Of a DNA stretch of 44,045 nt, positions 14,052 to 22,651 are shown one piece after another. How positions within the stretch are numbered: position 1 is the first letter of the stretch; every line of letters begins with the position of its first letter. A program made the translations under genes and the position numbers. This DNA is from an uncultured Gammaproteobacteria bacterium (GTDB lineage Bacteria > Pseudomonadota > Gammaproteobacteria > Pseudomonadales > UBA5518): contig CAJADV010000404.1 in assembly GCA_903938575.1 (NCBI GenBank), positions 1-44,045 on the forward strand, read 5' to 3'. The notes beneath the pieces are model-generated. The model was not told where the DNA came from. It did no database searches and saw nothing but the letters and a program-made list of their open reading frames with translations.

Positions 14052-14161
14052 GTCCGGAGTGTAGCCGGGATCACCCGCGGGCGGGTCGGCGCCTGGTGTC
14101 GCGAATCCTTGCCTCTGCTACCATCCGGGTCTCAAACCGTGGCGAGGCGCAGGGCGGTCAG

Positions 14162-15643
14162 GTGCTCAAAATCGTGGTGGATGATCCCTCGGACTGGAGT
14201 CCGTTCTACCCGAGCGAACACGTCATTTCTTTCGCCGATTACCTGACCCTGCCCGAGGACAGCTTCCGCCAGCCCTTGCGGGTGATCAATCTCTGCAAGA
14301 GCGAACGCTACCTGTCCCGGGGTTACTACTGCTCGCTGCTTGCCGAGGCGCGGGGTCACCGGGTTCTCCCTGGCGTGGCGACGCTGAACATCCTGCGCAA
14401 CCGCAAGCTCTTCCTGCTTGAATTCGACGACCTCGAGGAGCGCATTGACGAACTCCTGCGCGAGCACCCGCTGGCCAAAGGCGAGGAGTTCAAGGTCCTG
14501 AGCTACTTCGGGCGTGTGAAGGAACAGGCCCTGTCGCCGCTGGCGCGAGATCTCTTCGAGCGATTCGCCTGCCCGATTCTCGCGATCGAGTTTCGCAAGC
14601 GGGCGCGCTGGGAAATCGGCTCGCTGGAGCCGCTTGCGCCCTCGCAGCTCGATCCCGAGCAGCAGACGGTGTTCGCCGAGGCGCTCGAGCGCTACAGCCG
14701 GGCGGTGTGGCGCCGGCCGCGTGAGCGCACGCGCTACCGGTATGACATGGCGATCCTCGTCGACCCGGAAGACCCGCTGCCGCCCAGCAACCCGCGTGCG
14801 CTCAAGTACTTCATGAAAGCGGGCATGAAGCTCGGTATCGCGGTGAATCTCATCAAGCGCACGGATTTCGGCCGGCTCCAGGAGTACGACGCGCTCTTCA
14901 TCCGCGCGACCACGGCCATCGACCACTTCACTTACCGCTTTGCGCAGAAGGCGGAGTCCGAGGGCATGGTTGTCATCGATGATCCCACCTCGATCCTGCG
15001 CTGCACCAACAAGGTGTTTCTCGCCGACCTGCTCAAAAGGCGCAAAGTGCCGCAGCCCGACACGCGTATTCTGATCCGTCAGCCGCAGGAAAAGCTGATG
15101 GCCTCCCTCGCCGGACTCGGCTTTCCGCTCGTCCTGAAAATCCCCGACGGCTCGTTTTCCAAGGGCGTGGTGAAGGTCTCCACCGAGGACGAGCTGATCG
15201 AGACCCTGCGGGATCTGTTCCGCAAGTCCGCGCTGGTGCTGGCGCAGGAATATCTCTACACGGATTACGACTGGCGCATCGGGGTGCTGAATAACCGGGC
15301 GATCTATGCCTGCAAGTACTTCATGGTGCGTGACCACTGGCAGATCTACCGCTACGGCGGATCGGGCGGGGTGGATAGCGGGCACTTCCAGACGATGCCG
15401 ACGCACGAGGCGCCCCGGGCGGTGATCGAGGCGGCACTGCGCGCGACTCGCACCATCGGCAACGGCCTTTACGGGGTCGATATAAAACAAAGTGGCGAGC
15501 GGGTCGCGGTGATCGAGGTTAACGATAACCCCAGCATCGAGGCCGGCGTGGAGGATGAATACCTCGGCGTTGACCTCTACTACCTGATCATGGAGGATTT
15601 CTTGCGCCGGCTCGACGAGCAGCGCGCCAACCGCCCGCGTTGA
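14162..15643 (+). CDS. RimK-family ATP-grasp ligase with N-terminal RLAN domain
   Basis: RLAN: VINLCKSERYLSRGYYCSLLAEARGH; ATP-grasp: LVLKIPDGSFSKGV, AQEYL, YGVDIKQ, IEVNDNPSI. Confidence 0.9.
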   Translation: MLKIVVDDPSDWSPFYPSEHVISFADYLTLPEDSFRQPLRVINLCKSERYLSRGYYCSLLAEARGHRVLPGVATLNILRNRKLFLLEFDDLEERIDELLREHPLAKGEEFKVLSYFGRVKEQALSPLARDLFERFACPILAIEFRKRARWEIGSLEPLAPSQLDPEQQTVFAEALERYSRAVWRRPRERTRYRYDMAILVDPEDPLPPSNPRALKYFMKAGMKLGIAVNLIKRTDFGRLQEYDALFIRATTAIDHFTYRFAQKAESEGMVVIDDPTSILRCTNKVFLADLLKRRKVPQPDTRILIRQPQEKLMASLAGLGFPLVLKIPDGSFSKGVVKVSTEDELIETLRDLFRKSALVLAQEYLYTDYDWRIGVLNNRAIYACKYFMVRDHWQIYRYGGSGGVDSGHFQTMPTHEAPRAVIEAALRATRTIGNGLYGVDIKQSGERVAVIEVNDNPSIEAGVEDEYLGVDLYYLIMEDFLRRLDEQRANRPR

Positions 15644-15705
15644 TGTCTTCGAAGTGTGCTCCGCGTGGGAGCACGCCCCCAATAATTAATTTCAGGAGCT
15701 CGATC

Positions 15706-17820
15706 ATGCATACGTGGCAGTTTTCTCTCGCTGGTGGTTTCTCGCAGGTGACGCTGGATCGCGGCGTCGATTTTGCCGCGCTGGCCGGTCTTGATCAGAA
15801 GCTCTGGGTCGCTCTGGCCTGCCCGGTTGAGGGGGTGGAGTTCGACCCGCACACACTCGCCCTTCTCGATGGCGATGGCGACGGGCGTATCCGCGCCCCG
15901 GAATTGCTGGCGGCGATCGAGTGGACACTCGCGCGCCTCAGCTCGCCGGACGAGCTTCTGGCGGGCTCTCCGGCGCTGCCGCTCGCTGCGATAGACACCA
16001 CACAGCCGGCCGGGGCAACGCTGGAGGCGGCGGCACGTCGCGTACTGCGGGAGATGGGCCGAGAGGGCGATTCGGCTCTTGACCTCGACAGTGCTCTAGG
16101 CGCGGCCGAGCTGCTTGCCGGCAAGCCCTTGAATGGTGACGGCGTCGTCATGCCGGCCTCGACCGGGGATGTGGCGTTGCAAGCGCTCATCGAAACCGCG
16201 ATCGCCGCTGGCTTCGGCACGATTGATCGCAGCGGTGAGCCGGGTCTGGCTGCCGACGGACTCGGCGCCTTCCAGACCGCCGCCGAGGCCGTGTTGGCGT
16301 GGCGTGCTGCGGCCACTCCCGAGCCTGCCGCCAGCGCTGCTGCTGTGGCTGCGGTCGATGCAGTGGGAGCCAGGGTCGACGATTTTTTTGCGCGTTGCGC
16401 ACTGGCGCGGTTCGATGCCCGCGCCGAGGCTGCACTCAACCGGGAAGAGGGCGCATGGCTCGCGCTCGCGGCGCGTGACCTCAGCATCGATACCGACGAG
16501 ATCCGCAGCTTCCCGCTGGCACGGGTCACAGCTGGCGGCGATCTGCCGCTCACGGGCTCGCTGAACCCCGCCTGGGCAGGCGCCGTCGCCACCCTCGCCA
16601 GCGACGCGATAACGCCGCTCCTGGGCGCTCGTGCGAGTCTTGCCGAAGCCGACTGGCGCAGCCTTCTCGCACAACTGGAGGCCTACCGTACATGGTCCGC
16701 GGGCAACCCCTACCCGGCGCTCGACGGGGCGAGCGATGCCGATCTGCAGTCCGCGGTGACTGCTTCGCAGCGGGCGGCGATGGACCTGCTCATCGCGGCG
16801 GATCTCGAACTTGCGCCTGCTTACGATGCCCTCACGGATCTGGTACGACTGATCCGGTTGCGCCGCGATCTGGCGGGCTTCTGCCGCAATTTCGTCAATT
16901 TCCAGGATTTCTACGGCGCTGAGACGGCGGCCAGTTTCCAGTGCGGAACACTTTTCATCGACCAGCGCAGTTGCAGCCTGTGCCTGCGCGTGGCGGATGC
17001 CGGCAAGCATGTGGCGCTGGCGGGCCTTGCCGGCGCCTACCTCGCTTACTGCAACCTCAGCCGTCCCGGAGGCGAGAGCATGCAGATCGTGGCAGCCGTC
17101 ACCGACGGCGATGCCGAGAACCTGCTGGTCGGTCGCAACGGGATTTTCTATGACCGCGCCGGACGCGATTGGGATGCCACCATCACGCGTATCGTCGACA
17201 ACCCCATCAGCGTGCGTCAGGCCTTCTGGAATCCCTACAGGAAGGTCGCCCGCTTCATCGAGGAGCAGGTGGCCAAGCGTGCGGCCTCTGCCGACTCTGC
17301 AGCGGCCGACAAGTTGCAAACCACCGTGGTGACGCTGCCTGCCGAGGCAGCGGCGCCGCCGGCAGTCGGTGCTCCACCGCCACCAGCGCGTCGCATCGAT
17401 GTCGGCACCGTTGCGGCTCTCGGCGTTGCGCTGGGGTCGATTGGTACAGCCTTCGGTTACTTTCTGAAAACCATCGCCGACATCAAGGCCTGGCAGTTCC
17501 CGCTTGCGATTGCCGGCATCCTGCTCGCGATCTCGGGACCGGCGATGATCCTGGCATGGTTGAAGCTGCGCCGGCGCAATATCGCGCCGCTGCTGGATGC
17601 CAGCGGCTGGGCCGTGAACGGGCGGGCTCTGGTGAACGTGCCCTTTGGCGCGACCTTGACGACGCTGGCCACGCTGCCCGTGGGTGCCAGCCTTGGTGGG
17701 GACAAATACGCGGTAAAGGGATCGTCTTCGGGACGACTTGCAGTGCTGATTTTTATCGTCTGGTGGGGGTATGCCTTCCTGAGCGATCAGGGTTATCTGC
17801 AGGCCTTGCTCGCGCGCTGA
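15706..17820 (+). CDS. Large hypothetical protein with an EF-hand-like loop and C-terminal TM helices
   Basis: AGGAG RBS; DGDGDGRIRAPE fits the EF-hand loop pattern; hydrophobic segments GTVAALGVALG, PLAIAGILLAISGPAMILAWL and LAVLIFIVWWG. Confidence 0.8.
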   Translation: MHTWQFSLAGGFSQVTLDRGVDFAALAGLDQKLWVALACPVEGVEFDPHTLALLDGDGDGRIRAPELLAAIEWTLARLSSPDELLAGSPALPLAAIDTTQPAGATLEAAARRVLREMGREGDSALDLDSALGAAELLAGKPLNGDGVVMPASTGDVALQALIETAIAAGFGTIDRSGEPGLAADGLGAFQTAAEAVLAWRAAATPEPAASAAAVAAVDAVGARVDDFFARCALARFDARAEAALNREEGAWLALAARDLSIDTDEIRSFPLARVTAGGDLPLTGSLNPAWAGAVATLASDAITPLLGARASLAEADWRSLLAQLEAYRTWSAGNPYPALDGASDADLQSAVTASQRAAMDLLIAADLELAPAYDALTDLVRLIRLRRDLAGFCRNFVNFQDFYGAETAASFQCGTLFIDQRSCSLCLRVADAGKHVALAGLAGAYLAYCNLSRPGGESMQIVAAVTDGDAENLLVGRNGIFYDRAGRDWDATITRIVDNPISVRQAFWNPYRKVARFIEEQVAKRAASADSAAADKLQTTVVTLPAEAAAPPAVGAPPPPARRIDVGTVAALGVALGSIGTAFGYFLKTIADIKAWQFPLAIAGILLAISGPAMILAWLKLRRRNIAPLLDASGWAVNGRALVNVPFGATLTTLATLPVGASLGGDKYAVKGSSSGRLAVLIFIVWWGYAFLSDQGYLQALLAR

Positions 17821-17870
17821 ATGCCACCCGCGCCTTGTCTGGTGAGCGTCAGTATTCTCGGGTTGCGGCT

Positions 17871-18797
17871 ATGAGGGAGCAGAAGGTGTTTCGACAATGC
17901 GTCTGCGGTGTAGCCGTCTTGCTGCCGCTTTGCGTCGCGCCGGGCCTTGCCCGGGCGAGCGTGTTCGCGGATCTCGATGTGCAGGCAAGCCGCGATGACA
18001 ACGTAGGCCGTGCCGCAAAAAGCGGCGATGTGCGCAATGACGCGTCCGTGCAGGTGGCGGGGCGGGTGGGCGGCGCGGTGGAGCTGGCTACGGGAACCGC
18101 TTTTTCTGTGGCGGTGCTCGCGCGCGCCGTCGAGTTCCAGCGCTTCTCCGATTTGAGCGAAACGGCAGCCGGCTTGTCGGCATCACTGAGGCACAAATTC
18201 GGCCTGGGCCCCGAAGCACCATGGATGAGCCTCGTGATCGATGGCGAGCGCATCGATTCGGACAGTTATATCCGTGACGGCTCACGCTACGGCGTCACGC
18301 TCCGCGCCGGAAAACGGATCGGGGAGCGCTGGAGCCTCTCGGCGGCGCTGCGTGAGGATCTGCGGGAGGGTGATGAGGACGATCAGAATCTTCCGCCCAA
18401 CCGCCCCACGTTCCCCGGTGTTGTGGGCAGCCGCCGGGGCGATGTCTTCGATTTCGAGGGCACAGAACTCGAGCTGTCAGCCGACTATCTGCTGGACAAT
18501 GGCTTACTGATGCTCGGTTCGTACCGGCTGCGTGACGGCGATGTCGTGTCTTCAGGACGTCCCAATGCCGATATCGTGGGTGCTGCGAAAGCCATCACGG
18601 CGGACGCGGCATTCGGGCCGGGTCGGTCTGCCTACCGCCTCGATGCGCTCACTCACACGGTGGTTCTCGGTCTCAATTATCCGCTGGCTGACACCACTGC
18701 TCTCGAGCTTGACTGGGAGTACCAGCTGAGCGATGCCGATGGCGGCATACGCTACGACAAGAACGTGCTGCGGCTGCGCTTCATGTGGAGTTATTGA
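17871..18797 (+). CDS. Putative outer-membrane beta-barrel protein
   Basis: Signal peptide ending ARA; DDNV motif near the mature N-terminus; alternating amphipathic strands; C-terminal beta-signal LRLRFMWSY. Confidence 0.75.
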   Translation: MREQKVFRQCVCGVAVLLPLCVAPGLARASVFADLDVQASRDDNVGRAAKSGDVRNDASVQVAGRVGGAVELATGTAFSVAVLARAVEFQRFSDLSETAAGLSASLRHKFGLGPEAPWMSLVIDGERIDSDSYIRDGSRYGVTLRAGKRIGERWSLSAALREDLREGDEDDQNLPPNRPTFPGVVGSRRGDVFDFEGTELELSADYLLDNGLLMLGSYRLRDGDVVSSGRPNADIVGAAKAITADAAFGPGRSAYRLDALTHTVVLGLNYPLADTTALELDWEYQLSDADGGIRYDKNVLRLRFMWSY

Positions 18798-18802
18798 TCG
18801 CC

Positions 18803-19480
18803 ATGACAGGCCTGCCGCCGGTGAGGGCTTGGGTTGCATCGCTGTGTGTTCTGGCAGTGCTGCAAGGGCAGTCCACTGATGTGCACGCTGCGTCATTGTC
18901 AGTGTTGGCGAGCGATCCTGCGGGCAAGCCGGTCGAGGGGGCGGTGGTGTTTCTGGAGGCCACAGGCGACCAGGCCACGCCGGCGTTGCCACAGTCAAAG
19001 TTGGTGATGGACCAGATCGACAAACGCTTCGTGCCACGGGTTCTGGTGGTCCCCGTTGGTGCTCTGGTGAGTTTTCCGAACAGCGACAATATCCGTCATC
19101 ACGTCTACTCCTTTTCGGATGCCTTGCGTTTCGAACTGCCGCTTTATGCGGGCACGCCCGCGGAACCGGTGCGGTTTCCCCAGGCTGGCGTGGTGACGCT
19201 TGGCTGCAACATCCACGACTGGATGCGCGGTTATCTTGTGGTAGTGCCCACGGCGTTGTTCGCGCTTACGGGCGCCGATGGCATCGCACGCATCGAGGCG
19301 GTGCCGGCGGGCCCTTGGCGCGTGATGGGGTGGCACCCCGATGTCGCAGACCAGAGCCCCGCAATGGGGCCCGAGCTCATATCCGCGGATGCGGCTATGA
19401 CCGCCGCAGTGACCCTCGAACTCAAGCGCAAGCTGCAAATCCGCCGCGCGCCTGCCGCGCGCGCTGCCGACCGGTACTGA
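18803..19480 (+). CDS. Exported cupredoxin-domain protein (family often labelled 'methylamine utilization protein')
   Basis: Signal peptide; FPNSDNIRHHVYSFS and GCNIHDWMRGY give a His...Cys-x2-His-x2-Met type-1 copper ligand set. Confidence 0.85.
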   Translation: MTGLPPVRAWVASLCVLAVLQGQSTDVHAASLSVLASDPAGKPVEGAVVFLEATGDQATPALPQSKLVMDQIDKRFVPRVLVVPVGALVSFPNSDNIRHHVYSFSDALRFELPLYAGTPAEPVRFPQAGVVTLGCNIHDWMRGYLVVVPTALFALTGADGIARIEAVPAGPWRVMGWHPDVADQSPAMGPELISADAAMTAAVTLELKRKLQIRRAPAARAADRY

Positions 19481-19521
19481 GCCTGAAACCCTCGCGTGGT
19501 TTTCGGAGTTTCCGCAACCGC

Positions 19522-21387
19522 ATGCTCGTGCTGGTCATCGGCCTCGTGCTCGTTACGCAGGCAGTGGCATTCCTGCTGGTCAGCGTCGCCACCACACGCA
19601 ATGCCACCCGGCAGATTGCTGCCAGCCTTGATGCGGGTGCTGGCGTTTTCCGCCGCCTCATCGACGAGCGCAGCGCCGGCCTTGTCGGCAATGCGCGCCT
19701 GTTATCCGGTGATTTCGCCTTCAAGCAGGCCTTCGCCAGCGATGATCACGGCACCATTCTCTCGGCCATGGAGAACCATCTCCAGCGGATCGATGCCGAC
19801 ACCATGATCCTGGTTGACCCGGACGGACGGGTTATCGCGAGCACGGTTTCGGTCGGGCCCCAGGGCAGCCGCGCGCCATGGGACGGGCTGCTTGCGCGCG
19901 CCAGTGCGGATGACTACGGCGAGGGCAGCGGTATCGTTGAAATCGGCGGCGTACTGCAGCAAGTGACAGTGGTGCCGCTCTTCACGCCGGAGCCCAGCGC
20001 CTGGATCCTCTTCGGTTTCGCGATCGACGATGCATTCGCCCGAGCGCTTGGCAAGATTTCCGAGGTGAGCGTGCTGTCGCGCCGCAGCGACGGCAGCTGG
20101 GATGCCGTTGCCTCGACCATGGCGCCGGCGACGCGTGACGCGCTGGTGAAGGCCTTGGGTCACGCGCCCGCGGGTACCGGTGTGCGCACCGAGAGTCTGG
20201 CTGGCGAGGACTACGTCCTGCTGCCCGCGACGCTCGATCCCCGTGCCGAGATGGATGCGGTCGCCGTGCTCGCCCGCTCGCTGCACGCCGAATTGGCACC
20301 CTACCGCAGGCTGATGGCGTCACTGGCTGCGCTGCTCGGTGCCGGTGTTGCGGTGGCGGTAGTGGCCGCCGTGCTGATTGCCCGCAGCGTGACAGGTCCG
20401 GTCCTCGAGCTGGCGCGTGGCGTGCGGCGGATCGCCGGGGGTGACTACGCGGGGCGGATGGATATTCCCGGGCGTGACGAGATCAGCGAGCTCTCACAGT
20501 CGTTCAACCAGATGGCCGGTGGACTTGAGGATCGTGAGCGGGTGCGGGCCTTGCTGGGGAGGGTTGTCTCGCCCGCCATCGCCGAGGAGTTGCTGCGACG
20601 CCCCATCCAGCTCGGTGGCGAGGAGCGCGAGGTCACCGTGCTGTTTGTCGATATCCGCGGTTTCACGGCGCGCTGTGAAGGCACATCGCCTGCGGAGGTG
20701 CTCGCCTTGTTGAACCGTTATCTCACCCGTGTCACCGAGGCGATCGAGGCCGAGGGCGGCGTGGTGGACAAATACATCGGCGATGCGGTGATGGCGCTGT
20801 ATGGCGCGCCACTCGCCAATCCCGATCACGCTGCGCGTGCGGTGCGTGGCGCGCTCGGCATCCTGAGCGCGGTTGCGCTACTGAACACCGAGCTTGCCGC
20901 CGAGAGCGAGGCGCCGCTCGCCGTTGGCGTGGGCATCAATACTGCCGCCGTCGTTGCGGGCAATATGGGCAGCGCCTCGCGCATGAACTACACCGTGATC
21001 GGCGACGGCGTGAACATCGCCTCGCGGGTGGAGGGGCTGTGCCCTTTCTACGGCGCCGGGATCCTGGTGAGCGACGCCACCCGCGTGGCCTCACCTGGCA
21101 TGCCGTTTCGTGAGATCGATCGCGTGCGCGTGAAGGGCCGAATTGAGCCAGTGGTGATACACGAACCCATGGGGGCCGGAGCACGGACAGATCTCGTGGC
21201 TTATGCGGCCGCGCTCGCGCTGTATCAGAGTGGCGATTTTGCGCGGGCAGGGCAGGCGTTTGCCTCATTGCTTGAGGCCGATCCCGAAGACGCCGTTTGC
21301 GCCTTCCATGTGCGGCGTTGCGCGCAGATGCTGCGCGAAGGGCCGCTGCCCGGGTGGAACGGCGTGCATGAACACCGTAGCAAGTGA
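19522..21387 (+). CDS. Membrane class III adenylate cyclase (TM - periplasmic Cache-like sensor - TM - HAMP - cyclase); start may be CTG 19477
   Basis: HAMP GPVLELARGVRRIAGGDY...DEISELSQSFNQM; cyclase LFVDIRGFT, DKYIGDAVMA and YTVIGDGVNIASRVEG (Lys/Thr ATP-specifying pair). Confidence 0.9.
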   Translation: MLVLVIGLVLVTQAVAFLLVSVATTRNATRQIAASLDAGAGVFRRLIDERSAGLVGNARLLSGDFAFKQAFASDDHGTILSAMENHLQRIDADTMILVDPDGRVIASTVSVGPQGSRAPWDGLLARASADDYGEGSGIVEIGGVLQQVTVVPLFTPEPSAWILFGFAIDDAFARALGKISEVSVLSRRSDGSWDAVASTMAPATRDALVKALGHAPAGTGVRTESLAGEDYVLLPATLDPRAEMDAVAVLARSLHAELAPYRRLMASLAALLGAGVAVAVVAAVLIARSVTGPVLELARGVRRIAGGDYAGRMDIPGRDEISELSQSFNQMAGGLEDRERVRALLGRVVSPAIAEELLRRPIQLGGEEREVTVLFVDIRGFTARCEGTSPAEVLALLNRYLTRVTEAIEAEGGVVDKYIGDAVMALYGAPLANPDHAARAVRGALGILSAVALLNTELAAESEAPLAVGVGINTAAVVAGNMGSASRMNYTVIGDGVNIASRVEGLCPFYGAGILVSDATRVASPGMPFREIDRVRVKGRIEPVVIHEPMGAGARTDLVAYAAALALYQSGDFARAGQAFASLLEADPEDAVCAFHVRRCAQMLREGPLPGWNGVHEHRSK

Positions 21388-22651
21388 GCCTCGCGTCGGC
21401 GCCCTTGTCGGGCGCTTGCGCGAGATCGGCGTGCAGTTGCGCGACACGCGCTCCTTCTGGCAACCCAACGCCTTTCGCAGCCCACGTCTTGCGTGGGAGG
21501 AGACGCTTCCTGATTTGTCAGCGGCACTGCGCGCCCTCGATCCCGCTGCAATCGCAAGGCTCCAGGGTGATCCGCTTGCCCATGACCAGTTCCTCGCGCC
21601 CTGGTTTCCGGTGGCACACTGGCGCGAACTCGAGCAGGTGGCCACGGCGGTGCAGCGTCCACTCGCGCCCTGGCCGCGTGACGGCAACCGCGACGTGCCG
21701 GGGCGCAAGTGGTCCCAGGTGGTGTCTTTCGCAGCTGCCGTCGAGCCCGTGCAGCGTCTGCGCTGCGTGGACTGGTGCGCCGGCAAGGCCCATCTGGCAC
21801 GCGCGCTTGCCGTCCAGTGGGGCAACCCGGGCTTCGTTGCGTTGGAGCGTGATCGTGCACTCGTTGAGGCGGGTGCATCGCTAGCCGGTCGCGCTGGCCT
21901 CGACGTGCGCACGGTTGGCTGTGATGTGATGGGAGAGGGGGTGCGGAGGTGGGTTGAGGACTCCGCGCATCTGGTCGCGCTCCATGCCTGCGGGCCGCTG
22001 CATCGACGCCTGCTCGATCTGGCGCTTGTTGCCGCAGCCCCGGCTCTCAGTCTCGCTCCCTGCTGTTATCACCTGGGCACGGACGGGCATCTGCCGCGCT
22101 CAGGGGCGGGTCGTGAGTGCTCGCCGGGGCTTCAGGCGGATGATCTGCGCACGGCCGTACAGGAGTCCGTCACGGCCGGTGGTCATGCGCGTCGGCGCCG
22201 CGAAAAACTGCAGGCTTGGCAGCTTGGCGTCGATGCTCTGCTGCGCGACAACAATCCGGGGTCGCAGTACCTGCCGCTGCCGTCGGTTCCGGCCGTCGTG
22301 CTCGCCGGGGATTTTGCGGGGTTTTGCGCTTTCGTTGCCGAGCGCAAGGGGCTGCGTCTGCCGCAGGAGCTGCGCCATGCGCACTGGGAGGCGAGAGGGC
22401 ATCAGCGGTTCTGGGAGGTGAGTGCACTCGATCTGGTGCGTCAGCGCTTCCGCCGGCTGATCGAACTCTGGGTTGTGCTCGATCTGGCGGTTGCACTGGA
22501 AGAGGGAGGCTACCGGGTACGGCTCGAAACCTTCTGCGAGCGGTCGGTCAGCCCGCGGAACCTGCTGCTGCAGGCTCGCCTCGAGTCGCTCTCGTCGTGT
22601 TCAGCGGGTCCATTGACGCCTCAGGCCAGCGCGGAGCAGCACCACGCCTAG
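21368..22651 (+). CDS. SAM-dependent methyltransferase (Methyltransf_32-like)
   Basis: VPGRKWSQV, VDWCAGKAHL, VALHACGPLH, LAPCCYH and SPRNLLL motifs. Confidence 0.82.
   Translation: MNTVASEPRVGALVGRLREIGVQLRDTRSFWQPNAFRSPRLAWEETLPDLSAALRALDPAAIARLQGDPLAHDQFLAPWFPVAHWRELEQVATAVQRPLAPWPRDGNRDVPGRKWSQVVSFAAAVEPVQRLRCVDWCAGKAHLARALAVQWGNPGFVALERDRALVEAGASLAGRAGLDVRTVGCDVMGEGVRRWVEDSAHLVALHACGPLHRRLLDLALVAAAPALSLAPCCYHLGTDGHLPRSGAGRECSPGLQADDLRTAVQESVTAGGHARRRREKLQAWQLGVDALLRDNNPGSQYLPLPSVPAVVLAGDFAGFCAFVAERKGLRLPQELRHAHWEARGHQRFWEVSALDLVRQRFRRLIELWVVLDLAVALEEGGYRVRLETFCERSVSPRNLLLQARLESLSSCSAGPLTPQASAEQHHA

Follow-up and report, generated by a model that had tools for sequence, protein, structure and literature searches.

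An exported cupredoxin encoded next to a dCache_3-HAMP receptor cyclase in an uncultured gammaproteobacterium: a candidate periplasmic co-sensor

The barrel-cupredoxin-cyclase cassette

The window analysed here is a 44,045-nt stretch of DNA from an uncultured Gammaproteobacteria bacterium (contig CAJADV010000404.1, hereafter C404), and the element under study is a cassette of three co-oriented, closely packed genes on its forward strand (positions 17871-21387) which encode, in this order, an outer-membrane (OM) beta-barrel, an exported cupredoxin and a membrane receptor adenylate cyclase. Comparison with other genomes (see below) indicates that the cupredoxin is paired with one clade of sensors whatever the enzymatic output these carry. 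The barrel gene (17871..18797; ATG 17871, TGA 18795-18797) encodes 308 aa and is separated by 5 bases (18798-18802) from the cupredoxin gene (18803..19480; ATG 18803, TGA 19478-19480), which encodes 225 aa. The start of the cyclase gene (19477..21387) is uncertain; its product would be of 636 aa if translated from CTG 19477-19479, a codon of the cyclase frame that overlaps the cupredoxin stop. This layout had been described in an earlier, sequence-only reading of the window, whose coordinates and spacing were rechecked and are correct. The three genes are real and not chance open reading frames, since each has many homologues, confident AlphaFold2 models were obtained (predicted local distance difference test, pLDDT, of 86.8 for the cupredoxin and 90.2 for the barrel) and the cyclase scores over three Pfam cut-offs. 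The same reading had assigned one protein to each layer of the envelope, in agreement with the barrel fold, with the signal peptide and fold of the cupredoxin and with the two transmembrane (TM) segments of the cyclase.

Foldseek searches with the cupredoxin model returned amicyanin as the top match (E 7e-6, TMt 0.64-0.69) within a leading set composed of amicyanin, plastocyanin and pseudoazurin (E 7e-6 to 1e-4, TMt 0.53-0.71), and the model displays the Greek-key sandwich of type-1 cupredoxins. The signal peptide (residues ca. 1-29) precedes a core (ca. 66-148) flanked by strands at 30-53 and 153-204, which in the model probably close into a CarboxypepD_reg-like sandwich; the only Pfam match is a sub-threshold one to CarboxypepD_reg. 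The C-terminal tail is basic and conserved (...RRAP...DRY) and is modelled with low confidence. The predicted type-1 copper ligands, H99 (19097-19099), C135 (19205-19207), H138 (19214-19216) and M141 (19223-19225), all on the forward strand, occupy the canonical positions, the last three with a Cys-X2-His-X2-Met spacing in the string 'CNIHDWM'. They are invariant in 74 aligned members, as are N93, D95, Y102, S103, E111 and D139. In the family profile, 'GCNIHDWM' is aligned with 'CSIHPYM' in the cupredoxin domain of NirK (6hbe) and H99 with a His of 5fc9, so that the intact ligand set proposed from the sequence is upheld both by its invariance and by alignment to solved cupredoxins. Fold, export, ligand loop and a His ca. 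36 residues upstream are shared with amicyanin and MauL, from which the protein differs by its length of ca. 225 aa, by the extra strands on both sides of the core, by its basic tail and by adjoining a dCache_3 receptor instead of a mau cluster. MauL has been described as an accessory protein of methylamine dehydrogenase (PMC2474590). It scores 13.4 bits (E 0.076) against the NCBIfam amicyanin equivalog TIGR02657, which has a cut-off of 110.2. The family is large, with at least 6998 homologues at E <= 0.001 among 8000 scored candidates, and these are named 'plastocyanin' (JGI) or 'methylamine utilization protein' (NCBI) in databases.

The third protein is a receptor with a periplasmic dCache_3 domain lying between two TM segments and followed by HAMP and catalytic domains, for which Pfam scores are of 35.1 bits for dCache_3 (cut-off 25.7), 57.6 for HAMP (25) and 79.2 for Guanylate_cyc (21.9). 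The sensor domain (residues ca. 39-278, 19591..20310, with the Pfam match covering 45-210) is flanked by TM1 (ca. 16-38) and TM2 (ca. 279-301), whose limits were inferred by reading the sequence. An alignment of 52 sensors gave the motif residues D79, F82, D90, T93, S96, N100 and R104 and a consensus, '...LLSADFAF..A.A..D..TI.SAL.NHG.RI.AD', that is found with every output type. When the sensor profile was compared with solved structures, matches were confined to the HAMP region (residues 300-352, 20374..20532, Pfam E 1.6e-15), and the sequence search retrieved no relative of known structure for the periplasmic domain.

The class III catalytic domain (20626..21141, as delimited by Pfam and with the same limits in a second search) contains the complete hexad, with metal-binding D392 and D436, substrate-specifying K432 and T506, and transition-state N513 and R517. 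The nearest solved catalytic domain is that of Cya2 (2w01; engineered form 6fht; residues 378-571, E 6.7e-34), which we take to be a guanylate cyclase. The two-Asp, Asn and Arg set is shared with 2w01, whereas Lys replaces Glu and Thr replaces Gly, and a HAMP domain lies upstream. These substitutions make the substrate-specifying residues of the window protein ATP-type, the Lys occurring in 'VDKYIGD' and the Thr in 'NYTVIGD' as had been read from the sequence; a Lys/Thr pair is a mark of class IIIb. The hexad is also intact in 17 of 21 other cyclase-type homologues. Exceptions are a Glu for the Lys in L022, an Arg/Ala pair in L081 and two Verrucomicrobiae metagenome-assembled genomes (MAGs; L005:6636-8331 and L024:6597-8280) in which the cyclase frame looks interrupted and tblastn finds the catalytic domain in another frame, as a result of either a frameshift or an assembly error. 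When compared to HAMP-linked class III cyclases, the window receptor is set apart by its dCache_3 sensor and by a dedicated neighbour protein. Its last ca. 60 residues (21199..21384) form a tail with a weak TPR-like signal (NCBIfam LcrH_SycD, residues 575-621, E 0.0012, far under cut-off), and tblastn alignments extend to the end of the query in L007, L011, L021, L022, L040, L046 and L058.

Homologues of the cyclase start a few residues ahead of a motif 'F(R/K)SF(R/Q)xR' which, in the window, lies upstream of ATG 19522. The codon homologous to the start of these relatives, one codon before 'RGF', is TCG in the window (19492..19494, forward strand) and ATG, ATG, GTG and TTG in four loci of the same genus. 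Contigs from four lake-metagenome runs, each from a different study, were compared at position 19493: two runs (X5, X10) read T, which gives TTG, and two (X1, X8) read C, showing that the ancestral cyclase start is polymorphic in natural lake populations. Judging from the codons available, the allele of the window must either be translated from CTG 19477, CTG 19483 or ATG 19522 or be translated poorly; as a fallback, a start at CTG 19477 is plausible.

No family match was found for the barrel protein in Pfam or NCBIfam. Its AlphaFold2 model, built on an alignment of 36 homologues (predicted TM-score 0.84), comprises a signal helix at residues 3-22 and then ca. 12 long strands that close into an antiparallel barrel, beginning right behind the signal peptide with neither a periplasmic TPR region nor a linker helix. 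All top Foldseek matches are OM barrels, including the EstA autotransporter barrel (E 3e-10), to which the family profile also aligns (E 1.7e-4), and the best TM-scores were obtained with the COG4313 channel 4rl8 (TMq 0.59, TMt 0.67). Weak Pfam matches among the 36 homologues are scattered over OMP_b-brl (9), DUF2490 (5), MtrB_PioB (4), Phenol_MetA_deg (2) and Autotransporter (2). The protein ends in ...FMWSY, and a terminal F or Y closes 28 of 35 homologues, in keeping with the terminal beta-signal noticed by the sequence-only reading. The 308-aa product is thus predicted to be an OM beta-barrel outside any named family, similar in size to 4rl8, NanC and autotransporter beta-domains and differing from these by the lack of Pfam membership and of a passenger domain. 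An identity with the Slam (type XI; SlipAM, PF04575) barrels was considered and rejected, since none of the 36 homologues matches SlipAM at E 1; the sole trace of Slam is a SlipAM-family cluster at rank 19 (score 0.97) in a protein-language-model search.

Linkage of cupredoxin and sensor across genomes

A scan of one genome per species detected a relative of the cupredoxin in at least 597 genomes, and the best-scoring 80 loci were kept and searched by tblastn, the queries being the window proteins and exemplar output domains. In 76 of these 80 loci the cupredoxin has a sensor homologue or a signalling output as its neighbour, and in 52 the sensor is directly downstream on the same strand. The barrel occurs upstream in 40 loci, including 18 of the 21 cyclase loci (among the three others, one has only 468 bases upstream), and is therefore facultative; the order barrel, cupredoxin, cyclase is found in 18 loci besides the window. 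The sequence-only reading had placed this cupredoxin family usually beside a barrel and a GGDEF/EAL protein with a similar periplasmic motif: the motif-bearing sensor is indeed found next to the cupredoxin, whereas the barrel is no constant member.

Among 31 related genomes, the cupredoxin, the barrel and the sensor occur together in the same six and all three are unmatched in 23, with weak single-gene exceptions in G024 and G027. In a wider sample of 401 genomes of the phylum, the cupredoxin (E <= 1e-15) was detected in 42 and the periplasmic domain of the sensor (E <= 1e-8) in 34, with 32 genomes having both, ten the cupredoxin alone and two the sensor alone. In 29 genomes with both, the two genes are adjacent, their matches lying within ca. 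1 kb of each other on a single contig. Co-occurrence in other genomes, on which the sequence-only reading had staked itself, thus holds for the cupredoxin and the sensor.

The outputs carried by these sensors differ. Among the 80 loci, 21 encode a class III cyclase, 51 a GGDEF and/or EAL protein and two a histidine kinase, and Pfam confirmed the outputs in ten example loci; in the remaining six the output is unknown or absent, two of these having a sensor match that is cut (L037, L075) and two having short flanks (L061, L071). Cultured bacteria among the carriers are Methylovulum miyakonense HT12 (L006, cyclase type), an Aliikangiella sp. (L046) and Giesbergeria anulus (L013, GGDEF-EAL type). 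A maximum-likelihood tree was computed for the sensor region (52 rows, columns up to HAMP, quick search, with support from the SH-like approximate likelihood ratio test, SH-aLRT, only). On this tree the output label needs at least four changes, for a possible minimum of two, as compared with a mean of 17.5 when labels were shuffled, and none of 200 shuffles was as low as observed. The histidine-kinase sensor L057 stands beside the cyclase sensor L006 within a starred clade, two GGDEF-EAL sensors are nested among cyclase sensors, and the window groups with L040 and L058, both cyclases. A shared input with swapped outputs, as had been suggested from the sequence, is therefore supported by the neighbourhood survey, one sensor clade occurring with cyclase, GGDEF/EAL or kinase.

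The sequence-only reading had further supposed that the input module was attached to a cyclic AMP (cAMP) output in this genome, and this part does not stand, given the same gene order in 18 further loci and the ten phylum labels borne by cyclase-type loci. According to record titles these are Verrucomicrobiota, Pseudomonadota, Nitrospirota, Nitrospinota, Myxococcota, Acidobacteriota, Chloroflexota, Actinomycetota, Riflebacteria and Rokubacteria, MAG labels being sometimes wrong. The cAMP version is thus not special to this genome, and the distribution of the cassette points to an old and widespread architecture and not to a local event. In the phylum sample, sensor frames are nearly all of 770-1000 aa, which is the size of GGDEF-EAL proteins, so that the cyclase form is a minority there. 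Two loci labelled Acidimicrobiia (L058) and Limnocylindria (L030) have complete barrel-cupredoxin-cyclase cassettes, OM barrel included; the phyla of both classes are usually taken as monoderm, which suggests mis-binning or mislabelling of these MAGs. Seven singleton proteins (P0121-P0127) that join the cupredoxin to dCache_3, HAMP or cyclase parts were considered as fusions of the 'Rosetta stone' type and discarded: they keep TM1 between the two parts, contain low-complexity Arg/Pro/Ala stretches and were read as frameshifted calls across adjacent genes.

A sister cassette devoid of the barrel was found in 25-27 loci and comprises the cupredoxin, a dCache_3-HAMP-GGDEF-EAL protein, a DUF3034 protein and a small globin (see L053:6001-10240, L014, L015, L047, L077 and L079). 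Its carriers are Pseudomonas, Lysobacteraceae, Rhodanobacteraceae and one locus labelled Acidobacteria. The DUF3034 protein has a signal peptide and a C-terminus in ...QGSF, and in none of the 80 loci does it occur together with the barrel. Membership of DUF3034 in the barrel family was considered and set aside, with a profile-profile probability of 1% (E 0.052) and no detectable sequence homology, so that the two are treated as alternative parts and not as one family. The globin displays a lipobox Cys, an invariant proximal His and two invariant Cys, and its profile matches group-1 truncated haemoglobins (trHbN) of the PDB (E 1.5e-24). An exported haemoglobin is unusual, and its occurrence beside a type-1 copper protein hints at O2, NO or redox chemistry in the periplasm. 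Finally, in a Comamonadaceae variant (L013:4074-8924) both barrel and DUF3034 are missing, and the genes upstream of the cupredoxin and of a GGDEF-EAL sensor encode a Crp-family regulator and a DUF4394 protein.

A copper protein as candidate co-sensor

Since the cupredoxin is constantly paired with the same clade of sensors irrespective of their output, it is placed on the input side, and a functional link between the two proteins at this level is likely. The constant core would consist of a secreted type-1, amicyanin-like cupredoxin and of an inner-membrane dCache_3-HAMP receptor. In the mechanism proposed here, the cupredoxin would act as the signal-perceiving periplasmic co-sensor that docks on the dCache_3 domain, and the state of its copper centre would alter the contact between them. 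The likeliest variable would be Cu(I)/Cu(II), as set by periplasmic oxidants, by O2/NO chemistry or by respiratory electron carriers, the alternative being copper-loaded versus empty cupredoxin. The HAMP domain would relay the change and the class IIIb adenylate cyclase would be switched, with cAMP as the product. As a facultative third part, the barrel would most likely admit the stimulus, a small solute or a metal ion, through the OM. Folds, gene order, ligand and catalytic residues, co-occurrence and the swapping of outputs are observed in the data, whereas physical contact, the nature of the signal, the part played by the barrel and the direction of regulation are what we infer from them. 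Taken as a whole, a cupredoxin whose copper state is read by dCache_3 while HAMP switches cAMP synthesis has, in our estimate, about an even chance of being correct. Direct binding of the cupredoxin to dCache_3 appears somewhat more probable than its absence, and the redox state of the copper as the signal is put forward tentatively.

Several systems offer precedents. In LuxP-LuxQ and TorT-TorS, which are encoded by adjacent genes, the signal is brought to a tandem PAS/Cache-type sensor by a soluble periplasmic protein that docks on this sensor. Such partners belong to the solute-binding proteins and contain a small ligand, whereas the partner here is a metalloprotein with a redox-active site and the outputs include cAMP. 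The YfiBNR (TpbB) system of Pseudomonas likewise has a component in the OM, a regulator in the periplasm and, in the inner membrane, a HAMP receptor by which a second messenger is produced. The likeness is one of logic only, the proteins being unrelated, with an OmpA-like lipoprotein as YfiB, a YfiR that is no cupredoxin and an output limited to GGDEF. In the cassette neither a YfiR-like repressor nor an OmpA/Pal-like YfiB was found with Pfam or NCBIfam, the periplasmic protein being the cupredoxin and the OM protein a 12-stranded barrel, and the sole match to the NCBIfam model for a YfiR-like partner covers the HAMP region (33 bits for a cut-off of 194). The kinds of parts are thus all known, and so are partner-dependent receptors, a cupredoxin not being among the partners in LuxPQ, TorTS and YfiBNR. 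Literature searches, with most subscription journals and supplements out of reach, found no description of a cupredoxin-dCache_3 receptor pairing.

The complex of sensor residues 38-280 with cupredoxin residues 30-225 was predicted from custom alignments. The interface score ipSAE was 0.33 (runs at 0.41, 0.33 and 0.30) as compared with 0.00 for the best of three controls, the runs agreed in at least 86% of contacts, and partner pLDDT was at least 82. In calibration, 58 of 80 solved complexes and 2 of 110 mismatched pairs attained the mark; with scores up to 0.60, only seven of the 80 solved complexes did so, as did both of the mismatches. The outcome was classed as weak support, and the odds of binding are raised only slightly by it.

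Several points weigh against the co-sensor reading. The score of the predicted complex is weak, and a pass at this level would be more often wrong than right unless the prior is high. No Cys, His or Met suggesting hand-over of electrons or metal is found among the conserved periplasmic residues in the sensor alignment, and copper binding by the cupredoxin is predicted from its residues. The 80 loci are the best scorers, which biases them towards relatives of the window protein, and kin among them are not independent. In L019 and L080, whose flanks are complete, the barrel and the cupredoxin occur with no sensor within 6 kb, the cupredoxin and sensor genes lie apart in three of the 32 genomes of the phylum sample that have both, and the ten genomes with the cupredoxin alone have no sensor detectable at E 1e-8. 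A cupredoxin can thus exist without the receptor, unless these sensors are too divergent for BLAST, as is the case in ten Pseudomonas-type loci. Lastly, the ancestral start codon of the cyclase is gone in the allele of the window, so that this copy may be poorly translated.

Other explanations share part of this evidence. That the receptor reads loaded versus empty cupredoxin as a measure of copper availability, with the barrel as an entry channel for copper or a copper chelate, is compatible with the same intact ligand set and with a small, 12-stranded, channel-like barrel, and would account equally well for the linkage of cupredoxin and sensor. It is rather unlikely, as copper is held very tightly in type-1 sites, whose usual constitutive loading fits poorly with the sensing of copper levels, as the metal is bound within the kinase in known copper sensors of the periplasm, and as the haemoglobin-bearing sister cassette points rather to gas or redox chemistry. 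The barrel and the cupredoxin might otherwise form a processing unit for the uptake and one-electron oxidation or reduction of a solute, with dCache_3 binding the solute or its product and not the cupredoxin. dCache domains usually bind small molecules, the barrel match with the best TM-scores (4rl8) is a channel for hydrophobic molecules, and the two sensor-less loci as well as the weak complex score would be expected in such a case. Half of the loci, on the other hand, pair cupredoxin and sensor without any barrel, a type-1 copper centre on its own offers no site for a substrate and depends on a redox partner, and the invariant residues that are not ligands (N93, D95, Y102, S103, E111 and D139) would fit a protein-protein surface equally well; this makes a processing unit decidedly unlikely. 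Export of the cupredoxin to the cell surface by the barrel, in a Slam (type XI) or autotransporter-like manner, would have the copper protein act outside the cell. The SlipAM-family cluster at rank 19, the autotransporter barrel as top Foldseek and profile match and the 5-bp spacing of the two genes would agree with it. It is scarcely credible, given the absence of SlipAM matches among the homologues, a barrel without TPR domain or linker helix, the many barrel-less loci and a cupredoxin that presumably does not carry the barrel-like cargo domain with which Slam substrates end at their C-terminus.

A last possibility is that the cupredoxin has no link to signalling and, as a mere frequent neighbour of the sensor, carries electrons for an amine dehydrogenase or some other oxidoreductase of the periplasm. 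Its fold is nearest to amicyanin. The sequence-only reading had stated that no mau genes are present and that the methylamine label lacks support. This is correct for the 44-kb window, which contains none among the PF02975 and PF06433 matches and in which the cupredoxin is not part of a mau cluster such as characterizes amicyanin and methylamine cupredoxins. It is incorrect for the genome, where a methylamine-dehydrogenase light chain (PF02975, E 2e-50) occurs on contig C314 (L084:1173-1748, reverse strand) and two heavy-chain-like genes (PF06433) on contigs C414 (L085) and C334 (L086), all three being short contigs distinct from C404. A MauG-like peroxidase is moreover found beside a small cupredoxin on a further contig (see below). 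While these genes lend the electron-carrier role some substance, they lie outside the window, and the PF02975 light chain was unmatched in four of five other cassette-bearing genomes, whose completeness is not on record, which argues that the cassette does not depend on methylamine dehydrogenase. Together with an amicyanin equivalog score far under cut-off, and with an adjacency and co-occurrence across phyla and three output types that are hard to explain without a functional tie, this renders a pure electron carrier very improbable. The name 'methylamine utilization protein' is probably a by-product of the likeness to amicyanin and MauL, the NCBI name being presumably derived from the MauL domain model.

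Beyond the window, the co-sensor reading would bear on the least-known part of second-messenger systems, namely their inputs, since the stimulus is not known for the majority of dCache receptors, GGDEF/EAL proteins and class III cyclases. In the present case an entire receptor clade is marked by one conserved partner, and this partner points to a concrete stimulus, namely the state in which its type-1 copper centre is found. If the reading is true, cupredoxins would have a signalling role, a candidate signal would become available for hundreds of orphan cyclic di-GMP (c-di-GMP) and cAMP enzymes, among them those of Pseudomonas and methanotrophs in culture, and databases could amend the misleading names 'plastocyanin' and 'methylamine utilization protein'. 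A possible generalization, less likely than not, is that of a blue-copper protein used for signalling and not to transport electrons, as a periplasmic redox gauge (for O2, NO or oxidants) that is read by a dedicated dCache_3 receptor family and wired, depending on the lineage, to cAMP, c-di-GMP or a phosphorelay, with interchangeable front ends consisting of either the barrel or the haemoglobin lipoprotein with DUF3034. It would define a new class of sensory input, with carriers among ca. one in ten of the phylum genomes sampled and under the labels of many other phyla.

Neighbouring genes and other genes of the genome

Elsewhere in the genome, four further class III cyclase domains and six cNMP_binding matches were detected, and at least five cNMP-binding proteins could, from their domains, read cAMP. 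Contig C476 (L002:409-3247; L088) contains a second periplasmic redox cluster, in which the MauG-like dihaem peroxidase mentioned above is accompanied by a Copper-bind cupredoxin of 111 aa, a dihaem cytochrome c and a HAMP membrane protein; the latter was compared with the window sensor as a possible paralogue and rejected (BLASTP E 0.19).

In the window, a scan of positions 17000-22000 returned no promoter-like and one terminator-like site, a count under the shuffle mean. A look-up of RNA data listed no record containing the stretch. The cassette is preceded (14096-17820) by a RimK-like ATP-grasp gene with an RLAN domain and then by a gene for a 726-aa protein without family match in Pfam or NCBIfam, and is followed (21369-22651) by a Methyltransf_32 gene that probably starts at ATG 21369 and would then share 19 bases with the end of the cyclase gene. 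These three flanking genes were considered as members of the module and rejected, because their synteny is limited to the genus and they are unmatched in all 80 loci. The rimK-like and 726-aa pair is kept in the genus with or without the cassette, as in two genomes of the same genus (G008, G006) in which all three cassette genes are unmatched. Where the cassette is present, the order in the genus is rimK-like gene, 726-aa gene, barrel, cupredoxin, cyclase, methyltransferase and nhaA.

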